From positions 1-12,972 of the forward strand of contig JBBIJY010000042.1 in the NCBI GenBank assembly GCA_037445735.1: a stretch of DNA of 12,972 nucleotides. Reading direction: 5' to 3'. Below, piece after piece: positions 57 to 12,591 of this stretch; position 1 is the first letter of the stretch; every line of letters begins with the position of its first letter. A program made the translations under genes and the position numbers. The notes under the pieces were generated by a model. The model was not told where the DNA came from and searched no databases. It was given only the letters and a program-made list of their open reading frames with translations. This DNA comes from Armatimonadota bacterium (GTDB lineage: Bacteria; Armatimonadota; Fimbriimonadia; Fimbriimonadales; GBS-DC).

Positions 57-164
57 GCCCCTTCACCCATACCCTCTCCCCCTTTTGGGGGGAGAGGGGC
101 TAATAACTCCCTCTCCCCTCTGCGGAGAGGGTTGGGGTGAGGGGCATCCTTGCCTCTGGGCGGA
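57..164. repeat. ~108-bp REP/BIME-like palindromic repeat, copy 1
   Basis: Nested inverted repeats: gccccttcacccataccctctcc (57-79) pairs with ggagagggttggggtgaggggc (124-145), with internal CCCTCTCC/GGAGAGGG hairpins. The reverse complement is ~85% identical by eye to 12803-12912. Confidence 0.85.
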
Positions 165-177
165 GAGGGTATTACAC

Positions 178-185
178 GGTACAAT
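178..185 (+). promoter_or_regulatory. Putative -10 element (GGTACAAT) giving a leaderless lipB mRNA
   Basis: TACAAT at 180-185 ends 6 nt before ATG192. No properly spaced SD. Confidence 0.55.
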
Positions 186-191
186 CGAGGT

Positions 192-878
192 ATGCCTGCT
201 AACGGCTGGGTGCTGGATCTGGGGCTGATGGGCTATCGACAGGCGTATGCGCTGCAGACGCGCCTGCACGCGGCGCGCGTCGCGGGCGAGATACCCGACA
301 CTCTGCTGCTGCTGGAGCATCCGCCTGTGATTACGCTGGGCAAAGGCGCCCGCGCCGAGCATCTGCTCTTCAGCCCGGAGTTCTACGCCCAGCGCGGGGT
401 CGAAGTCTGCCCGACCGACCGCGGGGGCGATGTCACCTGCCATATGCCAGGTCAGCTCGTGGGCTATCCCATCTTTGACCTGCGGGCGCACGGGCGCGAT
501 CTGCATCTTTTCCTGCGCCAGCTGGAGGAGGTGTTGATACGCGCCCTGCAGGAGTACGGCGTCGAGGCGTCGCGCTCGCCCGGCTACACAGGCGTGTGGG
601 TGGGCAACGCGAAGATTGCAGCGATTGGCATCAAGGTCGCCCGCTGGGTCAGCATGCACGGCTTCGCGCTGAATGTGAACAACGATCTGGGGCTGTTCGG
701 GCTGATAGTGCCGTGCGGGATTGCCGATAGGGGCGTGACATCACTGAGCCTGCTCCAACAGCGTCCTGTGCCGATGGAGGAGGTCAAAGCGCGAGTGGTT
801 CGGCAGTTTGAGGCGGTGTTTGGGCTGGCGCTGATGCCTCCAGAAACGCCATCAGCACGGGTCTCAATTGCGGTTTGA
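192..878 (+). CDS. lipB: Lipoyl(octanoyl) transferase LipB, 228 aa
   Basis: Motifs LLLLEHPPVITLG, DRGGDVTCHMPGQLVGYPI, GVWVGNAKIAAIGI, SMHGFALNV, IVPCGI (catalytic Lys/Cys kept). Start moved to ATG192 because TTG150 lies inside the repeat. Confidence 0.95.
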   Translation: MPANGWVLDLGLMGYRQAYALQTRLHAARVAGEIPDTLLLLEHPPVITLGKGARAEHLLFSPEFYAQRGVEVCPTDRGGDVTCHMPGQLVGYPIFDLRAHGRDLHLFLRQLEEVLIRALQEYGVEASRSPGYTGVWVGNAKIAAIGIKVARWVSMHGFALNVNNDLGLFGLIVPCGIADRGVTSLSLLQQRPVPMEEVKARVVRQFEAVFGLALMPPETPSARVSIAV

Positions 879-1980
879 CCCGCTCCACCAGGAACGAGTC
901 GTGCCCCCAGGGGCTGTCGATAATCACATGCTGGGCGCGCTTGCCGAGCGATTGGAGCGTGCGCACCGCCTCTTCCTGACCCTGCGGTGGGAAGAGCCAG
1001 TCGGAGGTGAAGCTGATGAAGAGCATTTCCGCCTGCACGCGGCTGAGCGCGCGCTCCAGGTCGCCCGCGCCATAGGTCGCCGCGAGGTCGTAGGTGTCCA
1101 TCGCACGGGTGATGTAGAGGTAGCAGTAGGGGTCGAACCGTTGCAGGAAGGTGCTGGCTTTATATTCCAGATAGCTCTCCATCTGGAAGGTGATGCCCCA
1201 GAAGTCGGCTTCGGGGTGGCGTTCGCGTCCAAACTTGTGCCAGAGGGCGTCGCTGGAGAGGTAGGAGAGATGTGCCAGCATGCGGGCGAGTGCCAGCCCG
1301 CGCCGCGCACCTGCCTCCCCGCCCGCCATCAGCCCCATCAGGATGGTCTGACGCTGAATGTGATTGAGCGCAATCACCATCGGGCTGGAGCGGGCGGGCG
1401 CGGCAATCACAATCGCCTTCTGCACGCGCTCCGGATAGCGCACCGCCCACTCGAATGCCCGCATGCCGCCTGTGGAGCCGCCCACCACCGCGTAAACACG
1501 CTCGATGCCCAGCCGTTCCAGCACCGCCCGCTCCAGCTCCACCCAGTCGCCGACCGTTATCGGCGGGAAGGTCAAGCCGTACGGTTCGCCTGTGGCGGGG
1601 TTGATGGAGAGCGGCGAGGTGGTGCCGTACGGACTGGCAAGCACATTGATGCAGATGACAAAGAAGCGCTCGGTGTCCAGCGCTTTGCCTGGTCCGACAT
1701 AGAGGTCCCACCAGCCGGGCTTGCGGTCGTCGGGGTGGTGCCTGCCGGCGGCGTGGGCGCCGCCCGAGAGCGCGTGGCAGAGCAAAATCACATTCTCGCG
1801 TTCAGGCGCGAGCGTGCCATAGGTCTCGTAGGCGACCTCAACGGGCGCCAGGCGCGCGCCGCAGGCAAGCGTCAGCCCCTCGTCGAGGCGCAGATGCTGA
1901 GTCTGCACCAGCCCGACGCTGCGCTCGGGCTGTTCGGACAGCACGGCTGCCCTGCTCTCTGGCTCGTCTAACGGTTTCAT
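784..1980 (-). CDS. metX: Homoserine O-acetyltransferase MetX (alpha/beta hydrolase fold), 398 aa
   Basis: VAYETYGTL, LLCHALSGGAHAAG, PGWWD..GPGKALDT, nucleophile elbow GGSTGG, SDWLFPP (Asp), GHDSFL (His). Confidence 0.93.
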   Translation of the reverse strand: MKPLDEPESRAAVLSEQPERSVGLVQTQHLRLDEGLTLACGARLAPVEVAYETYGTLAPERENVILLCHALSGGAHAAGRHHPDDRKPGWWDLYVGPGKALDTERFFVICINVLASPYGTTSPLSINPATGEPYGLTFPPITVGDWVELERAVLERLGIERVYAVVGGSTGGMRAFEWAVRYPERVQKAIVIAAPARSSPMVIALNHIQRQTILMGLMAGGEAGARRGLALARMLAHLSYLSSDALWHKFGRERHPEADFWGITFQMESYLEYKASTFLQRFDPYCYLYITRAMDTYDLAATYGAGDLERALSRVQAEMLFISFTSDWLFPPQGQEEAVRTLQSLGKRAQHVIIDSPWGHDSFLVERVKPQLRPVLMAFLEASAPAQTPPQTAEPLAL

Positions 1981-2035: not shown

Positions 2036-2599
2036 TCAAGTGGGCGAACGGTGTGGGGCGCCGCGGCGCACCAGCATGACCGCCACGCGCTCCGGTTTGA
2101 ACGCCTCGCGCAGCACCTCCAGCGCGCGTTCCGCCTCCACGCTCTCCGAGCAGAAGAACAGATCGACCGCCGCGTAGCGATGCTCGGGCCAGGTGTGAAT
2201 CGTGTAGTGCGATTCTTCGATGATGACCACGCCCGACACGCCGTAGGGTTCGAACTCGTGGAAGAAGTGGCTGACGATATTGGCTCTGGAGGCGTGGGCG
2301 GCGCGGATGAGCGTGTGGGCGACCGCGTCGACCCGCTCCAGTGTGCCAGGCTCACAGCCGTACAGCTCCACCAGCAGGTGCGTGCCCAGCGAACGGCGAT
2401 CGTCCTGCCGCAGGGTGGTGGGCGCGATTTCAATATCGAAGCGATGGGAACCAGCGGGCACGACCGCATGGGTGGGCACGGCGCGTGCCAGTCGCATCAG
2501 GCGCTCGCGTACCCAGCGCCCAAGCGATACGACGGGCGCCAGCCAGCCCGTTGCCGACCGCGCAGGTCGGCTCCCCAGCAAACCAACCCGAATAGTCAT
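2036..2599 (-). CDS. speD: Pyruvoyl-dependent S-adenosylmethionine decarboxylase proenzyme (SpeD/SpeH family) with N-terminal extension, 187 aa
   Basis: LGTHLLVELYGC, HEFEPYGVSGVVIIEESHYTIHTWPE (ESH self-cleavage site), YAAVDLFFC. SD GGAGG (2610-2606) lies 6 nt before the ATG. Substrate cannot be proven from sequence. Confidence 0.88.
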   Translation of the reverse strand: MTIRVGLLGSRPARSATGWLAPVVSLGRWVRERLMRLARAVPTHAVVPAGSHRFDIEIAPTTLRQDDRRSLGTHLLVELYGCEPGTLERVDAVAHTLIRAAHASRANIVSHFFHEFEPYGVSGVVIIEESHYTIHTWPEHRYAAVDLFFCSESVEAERALEVLREAFKPERVAVMLVRRGAPHRSPT

Positions 2600-2937
2600 C
2601 GTTAGCCTCCTGTAGCCATCGGACGCTGCTCGCGCCGACAGCCGTTCAACCGTTCATTTTTTCAGCCATCAGGCTGAACCGAGTGCAACACGGCACAAGC
2701 CGTGCTGACCCCGGAGGCGATTTGGGTTTATTTGCGCGGTCGGTTCGGCATGGTGGGTCAACCGCCCTGCAGAGGGCGTTGCCCCGCAGACGCTCAAAAG
2801 GGTGAAGCGCCTATGGCGAAATCCAAAACGGCAAACGAATCGGAAACGCATTCGCCCACCGCGTTGGACCGCGACATAGCGCCCGCTTCGCCTCCCCCTT
2901 TGGGTTCGTCTGCAACCCGTCCCACGGGCTGCACGCG
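2600..2937 (-). promoter_or_regulatory. Long structured 5' leader of speD-metX (candidate cis-regulatory RNA)
   Basis: Between -10 TATAAT (2949-2944) and ATG2599: hairpin 2933-2911, rod hairpin 2913-2786, and hairpins 2784-2755, 2707-2686, 2678-2661, 2643-2614. Most non-Watson-Crick positions are G-U on the minus strand. Confidence 0.6.
2794..2877 (-). CDS. Putative leader peptide MSRSNAVGECVSDSFAVLDFAIGASPF (27 aa)
   Basis: ATG2877 to TGA2794, preceded by GGGGGAGG with a 13-nt spacer (same spacer as motA here). Translation is unproven. Confidence 0.3.
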   Translation of the reverse strand: MSRSNAVGECVSDSFAVLDFAIGASPF

Positions 2938-2943
2938 GGGGCT

Positions 2944-2970
2944 ATTATACCCCATCGGACAAAAAGTCAA
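2944..2970 (-). promoter_or_regulatory. Sigma70-type promoter of speD-metX (TTGACT-N15-TATAAT)
   Basis: Near-consensus -35 at 2970-2965 and perfect -10 at 2949-2944. The 15-nt spacer is short. Confidence 0.65.
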
Positions 2971-2999: not shown

Positions 3000-3659
3000 A
3001 TGGGCAATCTGCTGCTGATTGGTGCCGATGGCACTATTGGTCACAGTGTTGCACAGGCGTTTCTGGAAGACGGATGGCAAGTATGGGCAATCGGACGCAA
3101 CCCCGAACGGTTCCACCCCGGTGTGCAGTGGAGTGCCCGCATCACCGATGTGTCCAATGCTGCTGAGATCGCCCAGACCTTCGAAGCGCTTCAGGCATAT
3201 CGTCAAGCCGTCGGTGAGCCACCTGTAGAGGCATTTGTCTATGCAGTGGGTGATATTGTCGCCCAAAAAGCAACGGCGATCCAACCTGCCGACTGGAACC
3301 GCGTCCTGAACGCCAATCTGACAGGCGTCTATCTGACCACCATGCAGTTCGCGCCCCTCTTCAGCGCCGCTCCACACCTGTTTTATATTGGGGCGCTCAG
3401 TGAGCGCCTGATTCTGCCTGGATTAAGCGCATATGCCGCTGCCAAAGCGGGGCTGGAACAGTTCGTTCAGGTGCTGATGCGCGAGAATCCACTCTGGAAG
3501 ATCACCCTTGTGCGACCAGGAGCTGTAGCCACACGGTTCTGGGAGCGCGTGTCGTTCCGCCTACCGCCCAAAGCACTCCAGCCCGATGATGTGGCACTGC
3601 GCATCCTCGAAGCCTATTATAACGAACAAAAGGGCACCCTCGATCTGATTCCAGAGTAG
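3000..3659 (+). CDS. Short-chain dehydrogenase/reductase (SDR) family NAD(P)-dependent oxidoreductase, 219 aa
   Basis: Rossmann motif LLIGADGTIG, NANLTG helix, catalytic YAAAK, VRPGAVAT. Confidence 0.9.
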   Translation: MGNLLLIGADGTIGHSVAQAFLEDGWQVWAIGRNPERFHPGVQWSARITDVSNAAEIAQTFEALQAYRQAVGEPPVEAFVYAVGDIVAQKATAIQPADWNRVLNANLTGVYLTTMQFAPLFSAAPHLFYIGALSERLILPGLSAYAAAKAGLEQFVQVLMRENPLWKITLVRPGAVATRFWERVSFRLPPKALQPDDVALRILEAYYNEQKGTLDLIPE

Positions 3660-3661
3660 GC

Positions 3662-4480
3662 TCACGAACCGGACTGATAGGGGATCAGCAGCGAGACGCG
3701 GCGATTGGAGTAGTGATAGGGATCCTTCGGGTTGCGCAGGCGGGTGGCAGCGTAGCCACGAACCTCCGCTACCTGCCCCTGCCATAAACCGCTCGATTCC
3801 ATGATGCGCCGCGCCGCGTTTGCCCGATCGGTGGACAGCTCCCAGTTGGAATAGACTTTTTCATACTGATAGCGGCGAGCGTCAGTGTGCCCCTCAATCA
3901 CCACGCGGTTGTCCAGCTTGCCCACCTCGCGAGCAATCAACCTCAGCAGCTTGCGAGCTGCCGGTGTTACCTCCGCGCTGCCCGTCCTGAAAAACACAGG
4001 TTCCGGTCCCTCGATCAGCTCGATGCGCAGACCCTCCCGAACGAACTCGATTTTCACATGCTCTTTCAGGCGAGCGAGGTCAGGAATGGTCGCCAGCGCG
4101 GCTTCAAGATACTGCCTGAACGCCTCCAGTCGCTCCCGCTCGCGCTGTGTCCCTTTCGAGATGCCCGGCGGCTTGAAACCCTCGTTGCCCGCCGTGTGGG
4201 GCATCTCCATCGTGTTCTTGCCTCCTGGCGGCAGCGCATCGTTCACCGTGAAGACCGCCTTCGAGCGCATCTGCGCCTCGAAGAAGCCAGTCGGGTCGCG
4301 AAAGTAGCCTGCAATCGCCTTGCGGATCTCCTGATCCAGCCCCACAATCCACATCACGAGGAAAAACGCCATCATGGCGGTCACGAAGTCGGCATAGGCG
4401 ACCTTCCATGCGCCGCCGTGATGCCCGTGCCCGCCCTTTTTGCGTTTAACAACCCGAATCTCGCCCTCTGCCTGTGCCAT
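3662..4480 (-). CDS. motB: Flagellar motor stator protein MotB (OmpA-like peptidoglycan-binding domain), 272 aa
   Basis: HHGGAWKVAYADFVTAMMAFFLVMW transmembrane motif with the essential Asp; IEGHTD, NWELSTDRANAAR, NRRVSL. SD AGGAGG. Confidence 0.96.
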   Translation of the reverse strand: MAQAEGEIRVVKRKKGGHGHHGGAWKVAYADFVTAMMAFFLVMWIVGLDQEIRKAIAGYFRDPTGFFEAQMRSKAVFTVNDALPPGGKNTMEMPHTAGNEGFKPPGISKGTQRERERLEAFRQYLEAALATIPDLARLKEHVKIEFVREGLRIELIEGPEPVFFRTGSAEVTPAARKLLRLIAREVGKLDNRVVIEGHTDARRYQYEKVYSNWELSTDRANAARRIMESSGLWQGQVAEVRGYAATRLRNPKDPYHYSNRRVSLLIPYQSGS

Positions 4481-4489
4481 CGCGCCTCC

Positions 4490-5368
4490 TTATGCCGCCT
4501 GCGCTGTCGATGCGCTGCTGGTGTTGCGCACCGCCTCCTCCATCTCCTGGAAGCTCGGTCGCAGGGTGGGTTCGATGCTGCGGCGGGCGAACTCGATGCA
4601 TGTCAGCGGCGCGTCGCCCCGCGCGAATGCAATCAGCGCCTGCCGAATGCACTGCAGGTACTGCTCCTCAGGATGCACACTGTTTTCCACAGCGGACGCC
4701 AGCGGCTGGAAGATGCCATAAGCTGAAAGCACGCCGAGAAAGGTTCCCACCAGCGCGGCGGCGACCTTGTGCCCGATCTCTTCGGGTGGACCATCAATCG
4801 CGCCCATCGTGATGACCACGCCCAGCACCGCCGCGACAATCCCGAAGCCGGGCATCGCATCGCCCACTTTGCTCAACACATGCGCGGGCTTCATCGCCTC
4901 TTCGTGGTGGCGCTCGATGTCCATCTCAGTCATCTCCGCCAGTTCGAACGCGCCCACCGCGCCCGTCAGCACCACCTTCATCGTGTCGCACAGGAACGCC
5001 AGCGCGTGATGGTTGTTCAGAAGCCCTGGAAACTGCTGGAACAGCGTGCTTTCGTGCGGACGCTCCACATGCTGCTCCAGCGCGAGCAACCCTTCCTTGC
5101 GGGCAAGCGTGAACAGCGCGAACAGCGCACGCAGCAGCTCTAAAAAACTCTCCTTCCTGTAGGGGCTGCCCTTGAGTGTGCCCAGCACCGCCTTGATGAC
5201 CTGACTGATGATGGCGGGTGGGTTACCCACCAGCATGGAGCCAATCGCAGCGCCCCCGATAATGATGAACTCCGAAATCTGGATGAGCGCGGCGACCTTG
5301 CCCCCATGCATCAGGAACCCGCCCAGTATCGCACCGAACAGCACCAGCGTGCCAACAATAACAAACAT
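4490..5368 (-). CDS. motA: Flagellar motor stator protein MotA, 292 aa
   Basis: MFVIVG..GGFLMHGG, EFIIIGGAAIG, ARKEGLLALE, GDAMPGFGIVAAVLGVV, AALVGTFLGV, IEFARR. Start set at ATG5368 (GGAGG 13 nt upstream); the longer ORF-track extension does not look like MotA. Confidence 0.96.
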   Translation of the reverse strand: MFVIVGTLVLFGAILGGFLMHGGKVAALIQISEFIIIGGAAIGSMLVGNPPAIISQVIKAVLGTLKGSPYRKESFLELLRALFALFTLARKEGLLALEQHVERPHESTLFQQFPGLLNNHHALAFLCDTMKVVLTGAVGAFELAEMTEMDIERHHEEAMKPAHVLSKVGDAMPGFGIVAAVLGVVITMGAIDGPPEEIGHKVAAALVGTFLGVLSAYGIFQPLASAVENSVHPEEQYLQCIRQALIAFARGDAPLTCIEFARRSIEPTLRPSFQEMEEAVRNTSSASTAQAA

Positions 5369-5510
5369 CCAGCCCCAAACGCCTCCTGTGCAGCAGTTAT
5401 TCCACTTCAGGCGAACAAAAAGCAGGTAAGTTTCGGGAGTTGGAAAGAGTCCAAACAGCAGGAATCGGCTCATTCGCCCCGAACCAAACCTGCACCGGAA
5501 GAGTGCACCG

Positions 5511-5711
5511 ATGCACCACCCATCCGGGTGCCACAACTGGACGGAAGCCGAATGGCTTCAGCAGCTGCAGCGGCGCGCCGCCCGACTCACCAGCTGCGCA
5601 GACGACGCCGCCGACCTCGCGCACGACTGCCTCTGCGCCTTCGTGAACCACTTTGGCTGCTATCCGTGGGAGAGACTGTCCAAGAATTCACTACCTGAAC
5701 CAGACGGCTGA
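5511..5711 (+). pseudogene. Truncated ECF/sigma-70-like factor (N-terminal region 2 fragment only)
   Basis: LQRRAARLTSCADDAADLAHDCL resembles the ECF sigma region 2.1-2.2 pattern (A.RL....DA.DL.Q..). The frame runs into a TIR-like sequence at 5672 and stops inside the repeat. Confidence 0.5.
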
Positions 5712-5878: not shown

Positions 5879-8800
5879 CTAACGATGCACGACTTCTCGC
5901 GGCTCCTCGATGACCACTTCTTCCGCAGGTGGGCGGCGGCGGAACAGCAGGCGGCGCAGCCAGCGGGTCAGGTCATCCATCACCGTATACATGCAGGGGA
6001 TGACCAGCAGGGTCAGCAAGGTACTGACCAGCATGCCGCCGATAATCACAATTCCCAGCGGGGCACGGAACTCGCTGCCGCGCCCGACCGCCAGCGCAAT
6101 CGGAATCATCGCCAGCACCAGCGCGGTCGTGGTCATCAGAATCGGGCGCAGGCGGATGGGACCCGCTTCTAACAGCGCCTCCTCGCGTGCCCGTCCGCGC
6201 GAGCGCAGCGTGTTCGTGAAGTCCACCAGCAGAATCGCGTTCTTGCCGACCAGCCCCACCAGCATGATGATGCCGATCATCGACACGATGTTCAGCTCGG
6301 AGCGGGCAACAATCAGCGCCAGCAGGGCGCCCACCAGCGCCTGCGGCTGACTGAACATGATAATAAAGGGGTAGAGCCAGTTCTCGAACAGCGCGACCAT
6401 CAGCAGGTAGACCAGAATGAACGAGAGCAGCAGCGCCTGCATCATATACGCGCCCTCGCGCGCCATCACCTCGCCCTCACCGAACCACTGCACCTGCACG
6501 CCGGGGGGCACGAGATTCTGCTCGCGCAGCAGGCTATCTATCTGCACGCGCAGGTTGCCCAGCGAGTAGCCCGGCTGCAGGTTCGCCAGCACCATCACGC
6601 GCCGCTGGCGGTCGGCACGCTCGATGCGGGTGGGACCCTCGCTCAGGCGAACGGTCGCCACATCGCGCAGGTAGACGGGTGCACCCTGCACAGTGGCGAC
6701 CACCAGATTGCCCAGTTCGCTGGTGCGCTGGCGGTCGGCTTCGTTCAGGCGCACGCGAATGGCGTACTCCTGACCCGCCTCGCGGTACTTCACGCTGGTG
6801 TCGCCCTCGTAGGCGGTGCGCAGGGCTTGCGCGATCTCAGCGATGCTCACACCCAGCCGCGTGGCACGCTCCCGATCCACAATCACCTGCAGCTCGGGCT
6901 TGCCTGCTGACCACGAAAGGTCGGGGTCTTTGATGCCAGGCAGGCGGCTGATTGCCTGACGCACACGCTCGGCAGCCTCCAGCAGGGTGGCGGTGTCTTT
7001 GCCAACCATCGCCAGCTGGATGGGCTGCCCGAAGCTGCCGCCCCGAAAGCCCGAGAGGGCGTTCACCGAAATCTGGGCGCCCGCTATGGTGCCTATTTTT
7101 TCGCGCAGCTCGCCCGCCACCTCCACATCGGAGCGCGTGCGCAACGGCTCCTCATGCCGAACCCAGAACATCAGGCTATCCAGCAATGCCTTCTTGGGAT
7201 GGAGCGTCACCTGAATGCTGGCGAAGCGCGGTCCCCTATCGCCGGCGCCGATAAAGCCTGCGCCCGATGCACCCACCAGCGACGACACAAACTTCACTTC
7301 CGGGATGGTGAGCGCCACCTGCTCGATGCGCTTGACCACGGTGTCGGTCTCGCTCAGCGCGGCGTCGGGTGGCAGTTTGACCGAGATGCCTATCAGCCCC
7401 TGATCCTGCGAGGGCGCGAATCGGAAGGGCAGCAGAGGGTTACCCCGCAGTGCAGAGAGAATAATCAGCAGCAGGGTTGCCACCAGTGCGCCATTGCCGA
7501 TCAGGATCACCACCCAGCGATGGCGCAGCGCCCACGCCAGCGAGCGGCGATAGAACCGCTCCAGCGCCCGATAGCGGGCATCAAACCAGCGGAAGAAGCC
7601 CTTCGGCTCCTCTAAAGCCTCGCCCCGACGATAGAAACGGCTTGCCAGCATCGGTGTCAGCGTGAAGGAGACCAGCAGGGAGAAGAGCACCGTCACCGCC
7701 ACTGTCAAGCCGAACGAGCGGAAGAACTGACCGACCACCCCGCCCATAAAGGCTATCGGCAGGAACACCACCACATCCACAAAGGTAATCGTGATGGCTG
7801 CCAGCCCGATCTCCGTCCGACCGTTGTACGCCGCCTCCATCGGCGTCTCACCCATCGACAGGTGGCGATAGATGTTCTCAATCACCACAATCGCGTCGTC
7901 CACCAGCACGCCCACCGCCAGCGACAGCGCCAGCATCGTCATAAAGTTAATCGTGAAGCCGAAGAAGTAGATGGCGATAAAGGAGGCGAAGATACAGGTC
8001 GGGATCGCCAGCGCCACAATAAAGGTGCCGCGCGCATTGTATAAAAACAGATAGACTATCAGCACCACCAGAATAATCGCCAGATAGAGCGCGATGCGCA
8101 AATCGGTCAGGCTCTCTTTGATCGAATCCGCCTGATCAAAAGAGATTTCGAACTTCAGGTCGGGATACTCCTTCTGGATGCGCTCGATAACCTGATGGAT
8201 GCCGGCTGAGACTTCCAGTGCGTTCGCGTCGCTGGCTTTTTGCACCACCAGCGTCACATTCTCTTTGCCGTTCAGGCGGGTGATGACCGTGCGCTCTTCG
8301 ACGGTGTCGCGGATGTCGGCGATATCCTGCAGGCGGAGGGTGGCGCCCTGTGCCATCGGGTTGCGCGGGTTCTGCAGATAGAGGCGCAGGTTGCGCAGCT
8401 CCTCGATGGAGCGGAACTCGCCCAGCAGGCGCACATTGTAGTCGCGCTCACCTTCGGTGATTCGCCCGGCGGGCAGATTCAGGTTCGCCGTCTGCAGCGC
8501 GCGCACCACCGCATTAATGGACAACCCGTAGGCGTTCAGCCGCTCCTTATCGATGGCGATGAGGATCTCGCGCTTTTGCCCGCCCGACACCGTGACGGCT
8601 GCCACGCCCGGCACGCTCGCCAGCCGATCTTTGATGATGTTATCCGCCAGGTCGCGCAGTTCATATGGCTGACGGTTGCCTGTCAGCCCGATATACATCG
8701 TCGGCTGGGATTGCGTGTCCAGCTTGCTGATGACCGGGCGTTCGGCATCGTCGGGTAGCAGACCAATCGCTGCGTTCACCTTCGCCTGCACATCGATATA

Positions 8801-9112
8801 TGCCTGCCCGATATCGGTGCCGATGTAGAACTCCAGCGTGACCTGCGAGACGCCATATTGGGAGACGGAGGTAATCTGGCGCAACCCCTCCACGCCCGCC
8901 ACCGCATCCTCAATCGGCTTGGTGACGAGCGTCTCCACCTCGTCGGGCGAGGCGCCCGGATAGACCGTCAGAATGGTGATGACGGGGAAGTCCACCTTCG
9001 GCTGAAGCTCCACCTGCGTTTTGCTGAGCGCGTAGAAGCCCAGCACAATCACCGCGACCATGAAGACGGTGATGGTCACCGGTCGGTTCAGCGAGAGTCG
9101 GGTCAGCCACAT
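5879..9112 (-). CDS. RND efflux permease (AcrB/AcrD/AcrF, HAE1-like), 1077 aa
   Basis: N-terminal RPV..TM1, PKVDFPVITI..YPGASPDEVE; proton-relay motifs GVLVDDAIVVIENI, GLVGKNAILLVDF, RLRPILMTT. SD AGGAGG. Confidence 0.97.
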   Translation of the reverse strand: MWLTRLSLNRPVTITVFMVAVIVLGFYALSKTQVELQPKVDFPVITILTVYPGASPDEVETLVTKPIEDAVAGVEGLRQITSVSQYGVSQVTLEFYIGTDIGQAYIDVQAKVNAAIGLLPDDAERPVISKLDTQSQPTMYIGLTGNRQPYELRDLADNIIKDRLASVPGVAAVTVSGGQKREILIAIDKERLNAYGLSINAVVRALQTANLNLPAGRITEGERDYNVRLLGEFRSIEELRNLRLYLQNPRNPMAQGATLRLQDIADIRDTVEERTVITRLNGKENVTLVVQKASDANALEVSAGIHQVIERIQKEYPDLKFEISFDQADSIKESLTDLRIALYLAIILVVLIVYLFLYNARGTFIVALAIPTCIFASFIAIYFFGFTINFMTMLALSLAVGVLVDDAIVVIENIYRHLSMGETPMEAAYNGRTEIGLAAITITFVDVVVFLPIAFMGGVVGQFFRSFGLTVAVTVLFSLLVSFTLTPMLASRFYRRGEALEEPKGFFRWFDARYRALERFYRRSLAWALRHRWVVILIGNGALVATLLLIILSALRGNPLLPFRFAPSQDQGLIGISVKLPPDAALSETDTVVKRIEQVALTIPEVKFVSSLVGASGAGFIGAGDRGPRFASIQVTLHPKKALLDSLMFWVRHEEPLRTRSDVEVAGELREKIGTIAGAQISVNALSGFRGGSFGQPIQLAMVGKDTATLLEAAERVRQAISRLPGIKDPDLSWSAGKPELQVIVDRERATRLGVSIAEIAQALRTAYEGDTSVKYREAGQEYAIRVRLNEADRQRTSELGNLVVATVQGAPVYLRDVATVRLSEGPTRIERADRQRRVMVLANLQPGYSLGNLRVQIDSLLREQNLVPPGVQVQWFGEGEVMAREGAYMMQALLLSFILVYLLMVALFENWLYPFIIMFSQPQALVGALLALIVARSELNIVSMIGIIMLVGLVGKNAILLVDFTNTLRSRGRAREEALLEAGPIRLRPILMTTTALVLAMIPIALAVGRGSEFRAPLGIVIIGGMLVSTLLTLLVIPCMYTVMDDLTRWLRRLLFRRRPPAEEVVIEEPREVVHR

Positions 9113-9123
9113 GGTTTTGCCTC

Positions 9124-10602
9124 CTATCTTTCTGATGCGCCCGATAGGGAGTGCGGAAGCTCTGCTTCCGCACTCCAGCGCACGGGTTGACCGTCGCTGA
9201 GCAGGTCCTGCCCGCGAATGACCACCCGTTCACCGGGCTTGACGCCTTCGGCGTAGACCGTTTCGGCGTTGCTGGCGCGGATGCGCACGGGGCGTGATTT
9301 TGCGGTGTTATTCTCGACAACGAACAGGCGCGCCGTATCGCCCTTCTCGATCAGGGCGAGTTTGGGCACCAGCGGCACGTTGCGATAGGTGCGCAGGAGG
9401 ATGGTGCCGCGGGCGAACAGCCCTGTTTTGAGCGGCAGGTCAGCGGGGTTTGTGAGGGTGACGCGCAGGCGCAGGTTGCGGGCGTTATCGGCGGTGGCGG
9501 GATAGATGGCTTCCACCCTGCCCGCGAAACCGCGCTGCGGGAAGGCGTCGATGCGGATGGACACGGGCATGCCGACCCGCACCTCGCGCAGAAGGGTTTC
9601 GGGGAGCGTCGCTTCGAAGTAAAGACGGCTCAGATCGACGACGCGGGCGATCGGCGTGCCCTGTCCGACGGTCATGCCCACATCCACGAATCGCTGGGCA
9701 ATCCAGCCGTCGAAGGGTGCACGGATGAGTGTGTCTGTTAGTTGCTGTCGGACATAGGCGAGGTTTGCCTTTGCCTGCGCGAGGGCGGCGCGCGCGGCAG
9801 CCACCTGCGACTGGCGCAGCTCGATTTGCGATTTGCCCAGGATTGCCTGCCGATAGGCTTCTTCAGCTTGCTTGACAGCCTGCTCAGCGGCTTCGATATC
9901 CTCGCGGCGGGGTCCTTCACGGATGAGGCTCAGCGCCTCTTCCGCCTGACGCAGTTGCGCCTGTGCCGCTTCGTACGCCGCTTTCTGCGCATCGTACTGC
10001 TGTTTGGGGATTGCGCCCTGCTCGTAGAGCTGGCGGGCGCGTTCGAAGTTCGCCTTCGCCAGTTCGAAGCTGGCGCGGGCGGCGGCGACCTGCTGCTCGG
10101 CTTGCTGGCGTTCCTGCGGGCGCGCGCCAGCCTGCAGCGCTCGCAGTCGCGCCTGTGCCGCCAGCAGGGCGGAGCGCGCCGATTGAATCTGCGCATCGGT
10201 CAAATCGGGTTGCACGCGCGCGGCGACCTCCGCCTGCTTCAGGTTCGCTTCAGCCGCGCGTAATGCTGCCTCCGCCTGACGCAACTGGATACGCAGGTCG
10301 CTCTGATCCAGCATGGCAATCACCTGCCCCTTGCGCACGCGATCGCCCTCCCGCACGCGCACCTGCACCACCTTGCCGCCAATCCTGGCAGCGACCTGCG
10401 TGTCCAGATAGCTTTTCAGATCGCCTGTCACCTCAACTTCTTCGGTCAGGTTGCCCGTTTTGATCTCGGCGACGGCGACTGTGACGGCGCTGGTTTCGTT
10501 CGCGCCGGCGCGGGGCGCGGGGGCACCGCCCCGACACGCGCTCAGCATCACGCTCAGAAGGGCAAACAGCAATCCATAACCTGTCGGTTTTCGCATCGTC
10601 AT
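9124..10602 (-). CDS. RND periplasmic adaptor (membrane fusion protein), lipoprotein, ~492 aa
   Basis: Lipobox LSAC after a hydrophobic stretch; lipoyl halves GGKVVQVRVREGDRVRKGQ and IRAPFDGWI; long coiled coil; GVKPGERVV. Start ATG10602 is 6 nt after GGAGG and overlaps the TolC stop (ATG10605 and ATG10596 are alternatives). Confidence 0.93.
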   Translation of the reverse strand: MTMRKPTGYGLLFALLSVMLSACRGGAPAPRAGANETSAVTVAVAEIKTGNLTEEVEVTGDLKSYLDTQVAARIGGKVVQVRVREGDRVRKGQVIAMLDQSDLRIQLRQAEAALRAAEANLKQAEVAARVQPDLTDAQIQSARSALLAAQARLRALQAGARPQERQQAEQQVAAARASFELAKANFERARQLYEQGAIPKQQYDAQKAAYEAAQAQLRQAEEALSLIREGPRREDIEAAEQAVKQAEEAYRQAILGKSQIELRQSQVAAARAALAQAKANLAYVRQQLTDTLIRAPFDGWIAQRFVDVGMTVGQGTPIARVVDLSRLYFEATLPETLLREVRVGMPVSIRIDAFPQRGFAGRVEAIYPATADNARNLRLRVTLTNPADLPLKTGLFARGTILLRTYRNVPLVPKLALIEKGDTARLFVVENNTAKSRPVRIRASNAETVYAEGVKPGERVVIRGQDLLSDGQPVRWSAEAELPHSLSGASER

Positions 10603-11939
10603 CATCCGCCTCCATTTGTATGAGCTGCGCTCAGCGCATAGTGTGTTCCTATCGTACCGATTGCCCGCTGGAGAGCGGCGTAGGCGTTCAGGTAATCGAA
10701 CTGCGCGTTGACCAGGTTCGTTTGAGCTTGAGTGTAGGCGAGTTCGGCATCGCTGATTTCCAGCTGGGGTGAGACGCCCGCCTCGTAGCGGATTCGGGCG
10801 AGGCGCAACGCCTCGGTCGCCTGCTCCAGCCCCTTGCGGGCGACCTCCAGCCGCTGCAGAGCATCCTTGAGGTTGAGGTAGGCGGTGCGCACCTCCAGGG
10901 CGACGCCCTCCTTCACCTGCTGCAGGCTGATCTCGGCGATTTGCCAATCTTCGCGTGCCTGCGCCACCCGCGCACGGGTGATACCGCCGTCGAACACAGG
11001 GAACGATAGCACCGCCGTCGCGGTGAACACCTGCCGACGCGGGTTGAAGAGAGTGGGTGTGAGATTGAAGTTCCACTGCCCGTTGAGGGCAAGGGTGGGC
11101 AGGTTGCCCCGCCGCGCAAGGTCGATATTGACCTGTGCCAGCTCCCGATTGCGCTCGGCAGCCCGCACCTCCGGACGCTGCTGATACGCCTGCTGAATGA
11201 GCGTCTCCAGCGCGGGCAATTCCACGCGGGGCAGGTTGTCGGGCATCACGACCTGCACAGGCGCGTTGAGGTCGCGCCCCAGAATGTTGTTGAGCGCGGC
11301 ACGAGCCAGCTCCGCCTGATTGCGCGCGTTCAGCAGTGCCTGCTCGCTCTGGGCGACCTGAGTCTCGGCACGCAGCAGGTCAAATCGCGAGGCGACGCCC
11401 GTGTCCACCTGCGTACGCGTGATGCGCAGCCGCTCCTGCGCGTTCTTGAGCGCCTCCTCCGCCACCCGCACAAAGGCATCCGCTCGCGCCACATTCTGAT
11501 AAGCGTTAATCACCTGCAGGATCAGGTCGTTGCGGGCACGCTCGTACTCCAGTTGGCTCAGCTCATAGCCCAGCGAAGCGGCATGCACCCCTTTGCGGAT
11601 GAGACCGCTGATGTCGATGGGCTGGGTGAGCGTTGCCACCACGATTCGGCTCTCGATGGAGCCAAGCCGCACCTGCTGCGCCCCGAATCGAGCCGTGTTT
11701 ACCTGGTCATAGCGGGTATAGGTCGTATTGGTCTGCAGCTGCGGATTGCCAGCGCCGCGCGCCTCGGCGACCCGTTCCCGCGCCTTTTGCAGCGTGCGCT
11801 CAGCAATCTGAAACGAGCGATTGTTCCGCAGGGCAATCCGAATCGCCTCCTCCAGCGTCAGCGGCGCCTGATCAGTCTGCGCCCCTGTTAGTGCGACCGC
11901 CACCGTCAGCATCAGTAAGCCACCCATCCGTACTCTCAT
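10602..11939 (-). CDS. TolC-family outer membrane efflux protein, ~445 aa
   Basis: Signal peptide, LTLEEAIRIALRNN, two OEP repeats (GVASRFDLLRAE; RYEAGVSPQLEISDAE), RPEVRAA, SFPVFDGG. Start ATG11939 after SD GAGGTG. Confidence 0.95.
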   Translation of the reverse strand: MRVRMGGLLMLTVAVALTGAQTDQAPLTLEEAIRIALRNNRSFQIAERTLQKARERVAEARGAGNPQLQTNTTYTRYDQVNTARFGAQQVRLGSIESRIVVATLTQPIDISGLIRKGVHAASLGYELSQLEYERARNDLILQVINAYQNVARADAFVRVAEEALKNAQERLRITRTQVDTGVASRFDLLRAETQVAQSEQALLNARNQAELARAALNNILGRDLNAPVQVVMPDNLPRVELPALETLIQQAYQQRPEVRAAERNRELAQVNIDLARRGNLPTLALNGQWNFNLTPTLFNPRRQVFTATAVLSFPVFDGGITRARVAQAREDWQIAEISLQQVKEGVALEVRTAYLNLKDALQRLEVARKGLEQATEALRLARIRYEAGVSPQLEISDAELAYTQAQTNLVNAQFDYLNAYAALQRAIGTIGTHYALSAAHTNGGG

Positions 11940-11943
11940 ACTC

Positions 11944-12591
11944 TCACCTCGTTTCATCGCTGTGCGGCTGAGCTAAAAAAGCGGGCTTGAAGAACTCCAG
12001 CGTGCGCTCCACCAGCTCCGTCAGCGGCGCATGCTCTTTTTCCATCATCCACTCCAACAGGCAGAGCCGATAGAGCCGCACGGCATAGTGCGCCAGCACT
12101 TCGGGCGGCACATCCGTGCGATACTCACCCCGCTGCTGCCCACAAATAAAGCCCTGCAGGGCATGCTGGGTTGCCTCCTGAACCAGCGCCATCATCTGCT
12201 GGCGCAGTTCGGGATTCTGGCAGCAGGCAACCATGATGGAGCGCGTGAGCGCCAGCGACATGCCGTCCCGACTGGCAATAAACAACATCACCTGACGCAG
12301 AACCTCCCACTGGCTCGCCGCCGTCTGGGGTCTGAGCTGCTCCAGAAACTCGTAGATATCCTCCGCCATCTCTTCCATGTAGGCATAAAGCAGATGCTCT
12401 TTGGTGGGGAAGTAGTGAAAGAAGGTGCCTTTGGCGACATCGGCGCGCTCGGTGATCTCTTCGACCGTGAGCTGGTCGAAGGGCTTTTCCTGCATCAGTT
12501 CGAGCGCGGCGGTGATGATGCGCTGGCGCGTCTCCTCTTTGCGCCGCTCGCGCCGCCCCTTGCGCTCCGTCAGGTCCGTTTGCGTACTCAT
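11944..12591 (-). CDS. TetR/AcrR family transcriptional regulator, 215 aa
   Basis: RRERRKEETRQRIITAALEL..FDQLTVEEITERADVAKGTFFHYFPTKEHL helix-turn-helix; first gene of the efflux operon. Confidence 0.96.
   Translation of the reverse strand: MSTQTDLTERKGRRERRKEETRQRIITAALELMQEKPFDQLTVEEITERADVAKGTFFHYFPTKEHLLYAYMEEMAEDIYEFLEQLRPQTAASQWEVLRQVMLFIASRDGMSLALTRSIMVACCQNPELRQQMMALVQEATQHALQGFICGQQRGEYRTDVPPEVLAHYAVRLYRLCLLEWMMEKEHAPLTELVERTLEFFKPAFLAQPHSDETR

Follow-up and report, generated by a model that had tools for sequence, protein, structure and literature searches.

Bacterial control of S-adenosylmethionine decarboxylase (AdoMetDC) is poorly understood, and a locus of an Armatimonadota bacterium raises the question of how the gene for this enzyme, speD, might be regulated through its own messenger RNA. 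The locus lies in a stretch of 12,972 nucleotides (nt; hereafter the window) from GenBank assembly GCA_037445735.1 (contig JBBIJY010000042.1), where speD and the downstream gene metX are preceded by a structured leader of some 340 nt. We describe the leader as part of a genuine family of cis-regulatory RNAs that has not been described before and has a narrow range, a single family of uncultured Armatimonadota. From its sequence and modelled folds we consider it probable that the element is a lineage-specific cis-acting RNA switch for the translation of speD and, with it, of metX; the switching itself, its direction and its effector we infer. The argument starts from the following parts of the locus.

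2944 to 2970, minus strand: promoter-like site, with a -35 box TTGACT at 2970-2965, a 15-nt spacer and a -10 box TATAAT at 2949-2944.
2610 to 2606 and 2599 to 2597, minus strand: Shine-Dalgarno (SD) sequence GGAGG and ATG of speD, read from the sequence; the start agrees with family-wide protein homology.
2599 to 2036, minus strand: speD, 187 amino acids (PF02675, E 4e-38; TIGR03330, 130 bits), with the AdoMetDC domain at residues 70-180.
784 to 1980, minus strand: metX, homoserine O-acetyltransferase (NF001209, 428 bits), in the same orientation downstream of speD.

An earlier interpretation of this DNA, made from its letters without database searches (the sequence-only reading), had proposed an unrecognised structured leader on a speD-metX operon, and domain matches for both genes bear out that context. 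It had also placed a promoter about 340 nt upstream of speD, where the TTGACT/TATAAT pair is indeed found; 21 of 22 family loci have a TATA[AC]T box at this offset, and the remaining one is truncated at a contig end. Transcription is thus likely to start near 2937, which makes the leader about 338 nt long up to the speD ATG (2599). A consensus promoter scan did not list the site because it accepts only spacers of 16-18 nt. The spacer is 15 nt in the window's genus and 16-18 nt in other genera, and the GGG ahead of TATAAT hardly varies, perhaps as part of an extended -10-like feature in this lineage.

The proposal that much of the leader folds holds up well. The minus-strand RNA from 2940 to 2600 has a minimum free energy (MFE) of -166.4 kcal/mol, compared with -139.7 +/- 5.1 for shuffled sequences (z -5.26, with 0 of 100 as good), while the opposite (plus) strand gives z -2.72. 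The leader belongs to no family that we could recognise: a search of the window against Rfam gave 0 matches at the gathering score, in agreement with the earlier failure to find a SAM-I core (SAM, S-adenosylmethionine). Between 2500 and 3050 the sole matches at E<=10 were HOTTIP_1, mir-3017 and flg-Rhizobiales, all well under their gathering scores and dismissed as chance-level. RF00162 (SAM-I) was not among them and had 0 matches in the whole genome, although control genomes matched; RF00634, RF01725, RF00521, RF01727 and RF02885 had no match in window or genome, with a positive control for RF00634 only. A dispersed repeat can be rejected, as both BLAST and a covariance model find a single copy in the 2.78-Mb genome. 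A scan for intrinsic terminators found none on the minus strand between 1900 and 3100, and no U-tract follows H1 or H2, the two hairpins ahead of the ribosome site. The mRNA strand thus lacks a terminator, and regulation is to be expected at the level of translation. The earlier suggestion of a riboswitch or attenuator therefore survives in its first half, a riboswitch-like switch being the best reading, while attenuation is unlikely.

How widely is this leader shared? A search for speD in 40 relatives supplied upstream regions, with 22 loci coming from the window's own family. The leader is strikingly conserved in 22/22 of these loci, whereas SpeD is only 55-77% identical outside the closest species, so that the leader is far more conserved than the protein downstream of it. 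Invariant blocks across genera include GGGGAGGCGA, GGGCG..AUGUCGCGGUCCAA, GACCGCGC and AUCGCCUC. A covariance model of the core (R1; 171 positions, 37 pairs) has one match in the window's genome, at 2713..2899 (128 bits, E 1.7e-22). Among 28 other genomes of the same Fimbriimonadales family, 24 have one match each, and the four without a match are 68-85% complete. The model has no match in 122 genomes from four other families of the order, nor in 150 other genomes across the phylum. Scanning the genomes of 185,579 species with a 21-nt motif returned 29 matches, 22 of them Armatimonadota loci with the full motif; the other seven, from other phyla, do not have the conserved blocks on either side and were taken to be chance matches. 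Finally, of 40 metagenome loci fetched by way of the SpeD N-terminus rather than the RNA, 34 carry the RNA and the remaining six have no upstream DNA or a weak protein match. The core idea of the sequence-only reading, an unrecognised structured cis-leader, is thereby upheld: it is single-copy, without an Rfam family, strongly conserved and tied to speD(-metX). In the literature searched, which mostly excluded subscription journals, we found nothing on this element or on regulatory RNAs of Armatimonadota.

The RNA always stands before speD, usually before a speD-metX pair. Among the 22 family loci metX follows speD in 20 and is absent in two, which indicates that the RNA tracks speD, not metX; the upstream neighbour of speD is not conserved, even inside the genus. 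As for the enzyme itself, the accessible part of one report states that SpeD homologues can be ornithine or arginine decarboxylases, one of them from Armatimonadota (PMC10407285). Here, the TIGR03330 match favours AdoMetDC activity, as does a spermidine synthase (speE) homologue elsewhere in the genome, with which a consumer of decarboxylated SAM (dcSAM) is present.

Forty-six distinct leaders were collected, and 45 were aligned from the inferred start to +66 of speD (alignment A4); L023, whose coding start diverges, was excluded. The core is a domain of 155-201 nt closed by GGAGGCGA/UCGCCUCC, in which arms P5 and P6 and one junction site take insertions of very different lengths. The parts of the element, in 5' to 3' order, are as follows.

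2912 to 2932, minus strand: P0, the 5'-terminal hairpin GCAGCCCG...CGGGUUGC; 4 of 9 pairs are changed on both sides and 96.8% of cells are paired (n=45).
2713 to 2899, minus strand: conserved core (putative sensor) domain, closed by P1; R1 match, with long invariant blocks in alignments A2 and A4.
2888 to 2895, minus strand: P1 5' strand GGAGGCGA, SD-like; invariant, pairing with UCGCCUCC in 45/45.
2867 to 2881, minus strand: X (CGCUAUG) and S5 (UGUCGCGGUC), the candidate switching segments; invariant, with both pairings 99-100% compatible with the alignment.
2822 to 2868, minus strand: P4/P5 arm, UCCAA...UUGGA and a stem of variable length; 98.7% paired, with a tip of about 25 to 60 nt.
2805 to 2815, minus strand: X' (CAUAGGCGCUU), partner of X in the rod fold and of X'' in the junction fold; the evidence is mixed.
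2787 to 2795, minus strand: X'' (GAGCGUCUG), nearly invariant, paired with X' in 98.2% of cells.
2755 to 2784, minus strand: insertion hairpin, in G000 (the genome of the window) and G002 only (alignments, MFE).
2733 to 2743, minus strand: J (CCGACCGCGCA), the contested strand; invariant, with J:S5 in 45/45 and the pairing of J with the coding sequence (J:CDS) in 98.7% of cells.
2713 to 2726, minus strand: P1b 3' strand (CCC) and P1 3' strand UCGCCUCC, anti-SD-like (alignment, MFE).
2661 to 2711, minus strand: H1 (2711-2681) and H2 (2678-2661), covarying hairpins between the core and the ribosome site.
2642 to 2615, minus strand: hairpin before the SD (MFE).
2554 to 2588, minus strand: coding part of the element, comprising segments a (GGUUGG, 2588-2583), b (CCGACC, 2570-2565) and c (UGCGCGGUCGG, 2564-2554).

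Covariation supports the peripheral helices. Seventeen pairs are changed on both sides (110 cells, compared with 37 +/- 4 in shuffles), and sliding the partners by 1-3 columns reduces this to 3-8 pairs and 9-34 cells. The signal is confined to the peripheral helices P0, P5, H1 and H2: five of six pairs of the H1 inner stem and four of seven in H2 are changed on both sides, and at one pair at the base of P5 there is G-U in 19 sequences and U-A in 23. The relatives thus show conservation and peripheral covariation, whereas the helices proposed to switch never vary. Frequent G-U pairs identify the speD sense strand as the transcribed one, in line with the G-U bias towards the mRNA strand noticed before, and those in P0 point to an RNA hairpin rather than a DNA palindrome or operator. 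The small hairpins that had been described around a central rod are also present, as P0, the insertion hairpin, H1, H2 and the hairpin before the SD. Judged by eye only, the linker after P0 might pair with GUCUGG(U/G)A, with ACCA/UGGU in one subgroup and CCCA/UGGG in another. The junction site between GAGCGUCUG and ACCGAAAC takes hairpin inserts of about 30 nt in G000 and G002 and a different one of about 40 nt in L092, L094 and L095, three metagenome sequences, and this marks a site that tolerates extra structure.

Part of this conservation might instead reflect a short coding sequence. The invariant AUG within CGCUAUG (2877-2875) starts a frame reading MSRSNSV..., which could serve as a leader peptide or upstream open reading frame (uORF) like speFL or the uORF of eukaryotic AdoMetDC messengers; neither this AUG nor the six codons after it vary, and there is a GGAGG 13 nt upstream. 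The open frame, however, has between 7 and 93 codons, and its end falls in any of the three frames relative to speD; core lengths are distributed about equally among the three classes modulo 3 (19/13/13). Such variation in frame and length implies that the core is non-coding, and the invariance of every wobble position points to constraint on the RNA. We reject the uORF on its variable length, its lack of frame conservation and these invariant wobble positions, and regard it as highly improbable.

The constraint does not stop at the start codon. The element had been placed between 2600 and 2937, but it runs about 45 nt further, and on the evidence of codon usage the first ~45 nt of the speD coding sequence belong to it. 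In codons 5-15 (V G x L G x R P A R S) synonymous entropy is near 0, compared with mostly 0.4-1.9 bits elsewhere in the gene, and the codons are frozen as GTT (43/43), GGG (43/43), CGA (41/43), CCT (40/43), GCG (43/43), CGG (43/43) and TCG (42/42), whereas equally conserved residues elsewhere in speD use 2-5 codons. The frozen stretch ends in UGCGCGGUCG(G), which complements J (CCGACCGCGCA) exactly and nearly repeats S5. The J:CDS duplex has a native median energy of -21.9 kcal/mol, compared with -12.0 when the codons are recoded synonymously. Of 200 such recodings per sequence, none matches the native energy in 30 of 45 sequences, and at most two do so in 44 of 45. Within the same stretch GGUUGG (codons 5-6) has a partner in CCGACC (codons 10-12), for which GGUCGG is an alternative partner. 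Running RNAduplex on the whole leader against the coding sequence produced unrealistic multi-loop duplexes, in which J:CDS was the only consistent part.

These codons encode the start of a SpeD N-terminal extension of about 70 residues (2390-2599; M..VGLLGxRPARS...LRQDD.R.LGTH) that is conserved only in the RNA-bearing family. SpeD homologues of sister families in the order (L024-L031), where the RNA is absent, likewise have a long open frame ahead of the catalytic domain, but theirs is a different extension with a hydrophobic, membrane-anchor-like start and a GW..I.CDD...F..W motif. It is conceivable that the leader is a protein operator, to which SpeD itself (through its extension) or a ribosomal or polyamine-responsive factor binds to repress translation. 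The RNA and the extension were found together in one family and in no other group searched, the extension is rich in arginine and is predicted to form a helix over residues 21-39, and the extreme invariance of the core would also suit a protein footprint. Yet the most conserved residues of the extension, 5-15, are explained by constraint at the RNA level and are predicted to be disordered, the domain matches of the window's proteins (Pfam and NCBIfam type) include no RNA-binding family, and the duplicated partner strands described below are left unexplained. On these grounds we consider an operator quite unlikely. In the AlphaFold model, residues 1-18 and 42-50 of SpeD have a pLDDT below 50, residues 21-39 form a helix and residues 54-58 a short strand before the AdoMetDC fold; a disordered start is what would be expected if its codons serve the RNA.

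How, then, might leader and coding sequence work together? The core can adopt two folds. In fold A, a rod, GGGCGCUAUG is paired with CAUAGGCGCUU and stacked on P4/P5. In fold B, a three-way junction, the closing helices are P1 (GGAGGCGA:UCGCCUCC), P1b (GGG:CCC) and S5:J (UG.CGCGGU:ACCGCG.CA), and the second arm is UAGGCGCUU:GAGCGUCUG. Put in terms of the segments above, X finds its partner X' in the rod, and S5 finds J in the junction. The rod of the sequence-only reading does appear in the MFE fold much as described (about 2914-2786); it is not the conserved unit, however, but one of the two alternative folds. Its outer pairs gcagacg/cgtctgc and aaaggg/cccttt, listed in that reading, are specific to the window's genus, where X'' also pairs with GCAGACG (2914-2908) to form the rod base. 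Covariation failed as an arbiter between rod and junction: each is about 99% compatible with the core alignment, its pairs never vary, and single variants point both ways. Folding of single sequences gives fold B for most and fold A for some. In L092, L094 and L095 a changed base is a bulge in fold A and is paired in fold B, and in L120 and L122 the X'-X'' loop of the fold B arm is shortened to about 5 nt, as a real hairpin would have it, while L022 and L023 retain fold A through changes from C-G to U-A and U-G.

We propose that these alternatives extend to the ribosome site. The element would span about 2937-2554 on the minus strand and consist of a 5' hairpin, a sensor of about 187 nt and two spacer hairpins, followed by the ribosome site and codons 1-15. 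Three segments in the sensor's 3' half, J (CCGACCGCGCA), ACCC and UCGCCUCC, would be able to pair with either of two look-alike partners. In the ON state the partner would be the 5' half of the sensor (UGUCGCGGUC, GGG and GGAGGCGA), which closes the three-way junction and would leave the SD, the AUG and the early codons free. In the OFF state it would be the initiation region, with the SD GGAGG and, further along, UGCGCGGUCGG in codons 12-15; this state might be aided by the local GGUUGG:CCGACC hairpin over codons 5-11, and the sensor would refold into the rod. Since the leader is transcribed first, the ON fold would form first and the slightly more stable OFF fold could arise later by strand displacement. 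An effector that stabilises one of the folds would set the yield of SpeD and MetX. Such a layout would be that of a classic 1:2 versus 2:3 switch.

Folding predictions are in large part consistent with this arrangement. When only 30 coding nt are included, 31 of 46 sequences give P1 a probability of at least 0.5. Extending this to 66 coding nt yields an MFE structure that contains J:CDS in 37 of 45 sequences, places at least five bases of UCGCCUCC on the SD window in 26 of 45 and retains P1 in 5 of 45. For G000, the OFF fold combines the rod, J (2743-2733) paired with the coding sequence (2564-2554), GCCUCC (2718-2713) paired with GGAGGC (2610-2605) and the a:b hairpin. Across the 45 aligned sequences ON pairs are possible in 96.2% of cells and OFF pairs in 95.9%, and both folds fit 45/45. 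When P1 and S5:J are enforced, the ON fold lies a median 3.5 kcal/mol above the OFF fold at 37 C.

This energy gap depends on temperature. At 80 C the median cost of the ON fold falls to 0.6 kcal/mol, and the ON fold is favoured in 21 of 45 sequences compared with 4 of 45 at 37 C. Thermophiles depend on polyamines at high temperature, and several relatives' records are labelled hot-spring. The leader could accordingly be imagined as an RNA thermosensor, in which heat shifts the balance of the folds and increases speD translation with no ligand involved. It would share with RNA thermometers and cspA-type thermosensing messengers the use of alternative mRNA folds to alter access to the ribosome site without a protein. 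The predicted shift is nevertheless weak, gradual and uneven, with several sequences keeping or strengthening the OFF fold at 80 C, and nearest-neighbour parameters are unreliable so far from 37 C. The speD leader is, moreover, much larger than thermometers, and a junction of 190 nt with many invariant unpaired bases is far more elaborate than the known examples. The closest DNA matches to the window are labelled subsurface, with the temperature not stated. We therefore hold a thermosensor to be unlikely.

Several observations speak against the translational switch that we prefer. With 30 coding nt, sequestration and accessibility of the SD show no consistent pattern, and with 66 the MFE structure lacks J:CDS in 8 of 45 sequences and the anti-SD:SD pairing in 19 of 45. 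The J:CDS helix falls at +36 to +46, beyond the usual ribosome footprint, so that occlusion would depend on the weaker SD and a:b pairings. P1, P1b, S5:J, J:CDS, anti-SD:SD and a:b never vary, with no compensatory change for either fold, and the invariance of these helices could have another cause. The 45 sequences are close kin, and counts over them overstate the independent support. One locus, L023 of genome G004, has the core (112.6 bits) but no coding complement to J. Finally, SAM would be an awkward effector for an ON switch acting on metX. L023 comes from the most divergent member of the family; its first codons read VGMLGNPPAG..., metX does not follow speD, and the locus sits on a 2.4-kb contig; it may be a natural 'platform-less' variant or reflect an assembly or frame problem.

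If the element is a switch, what would it sense? The context of speD, metX and speE leads us to guess at a metabolite of the SAM or polyamine pathway. Specifying the effector in this way gives a sub-case of the translational switch, namely a metabolite riboswitch of a new class, whose junction or rod would bind SAM, dcSAM, methylthioadenosine, spermidine or a longer polyamine, putrescine or agmatine. We entertain this only tentatively. In its favour, the RNA occurs in front of speD alone (metX is also present in 20 of 22 loci), and bases that are unpaired in both folds are invariant, such as ACCGAAAC before J and GCCA before X'; the two folds are close in energy, and the speE homologue provides a dcSAM consumer. 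SAM riboswitch classes commonly precede metX, and the leader shares the context of metX and SAM-metabolism genes with the known ones (SAM-I, II, IV, I/IV, VI and SAM/SAH). It differs in tracking speD and in matching none of their six Rfam models in window or genome, though four of the six genome searches lacked a positive control (SAM-I and SAM-IV had one). Spermidine-sensing RNAs before speD exist in another architecture, according to the accessible part of the report that describes them (PMC10853860). On the other side, an RNA that stands before a single gene family gives comparative genomics no means of narrowing the ligand, its distribution is narrow, and its predicted polarity (sensor closed = ON) would suit activation of speD by its substrate but not feedback on metX.

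Comparison with known systems helps to place the element. In the thiM (thiamine pyrophosphate, TPP) and btuB (cobalamin) leaders of E. coli, both translational riboswitches, the 3' strand of P1 doubles as an anti-SD, and btuB needs part of its coding region. The speD leader resembles them in its long structured 5' region, in the predicted opposition of sensor closure and ribosome-site pairing, in the lack of a terminator and in a putative platform that lies partly in the coding sequence. It has, in contrast, no match to the TPP, cobalamin or any other Rfam family, its fold and conserved core are different, and three separate partner segments occur twice, once in the sensor's 5' half and once in the initiation region. 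To our knowledge, the only validated polyamine-sensing RNA is a rare SAM-I derivative. The accessible part of its description presents this spermidine riboswitch as a SAM-I variant with 13 representatives that acts as a transcription-terminating off switch (Cell Rep 2023, PMC10853860). As far as that part goes, the two RNAs are alike in being rare, narrowly distributed cis-RNAs before polyamine genes including speD. The spermidine riboswitch has the four stems of SAM-I, whereas the speD leader, compared by way of the RF00162 model only, has no SAM-I match at E<=10, no terminator and a three-way-junction/rod architecture.

Taken together, the element is a good orphan-riboswitch candidate and most likely a two-state translational switch that reaches into the coding sequence. 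If this is true, a second, unrelated RNA stands before speD, with a new aptamer fold on which SAM, dcSAM and polyamines could be tried. Armatimonadota would also have a first described regulatory RNA family, none having been found in the literature searched, and the element would be a clear case of codon choice, perhaps even peptide sequence, being dictated by a regulatory RNA structure; an analysis of the leader alone would have missed the coding part that would make the switch. In a bolder form of this idea, the family would be the first class of riboswitches to serve the polyamine branch of SAM metabolism without descending from a SAM aptamer. Its ligand would be dcSAM, SAM or a (long-chain) polyamine, and its platform would lie in the first 15 codons, with a disordered VGLLGxRPARS peptide existing mainly for the sake of the RNA. 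We regard this as rather doubtful.

The remainder of the window holds genes around the speD-metX pair. An SDR gene diverges from the speD promoter, beginning at 3000, and is adjoined by a motA/motB stator pair (3662-5536, minus strand). Downstream of metX lies an open reading frame of 198 amino acids (63-659, minus strand) that matches nothing in Pfam or NCBIfam; residues 1-40 are conserved downstream of metX in two relatives from the genus, at 80% and 50% identity. An RND efflux operon (5879-12591, minus strand) encodes a TetR regulator, an OEP outer-membrane factor, a membrane-fusion protein (MFP) of the HlyD family and an AcrB-type pump. The MFP frame as listed (9124-11076) overlaps the OEP frame (10602-11957) by about 475 nt, and the MFP start is probably further downstream.

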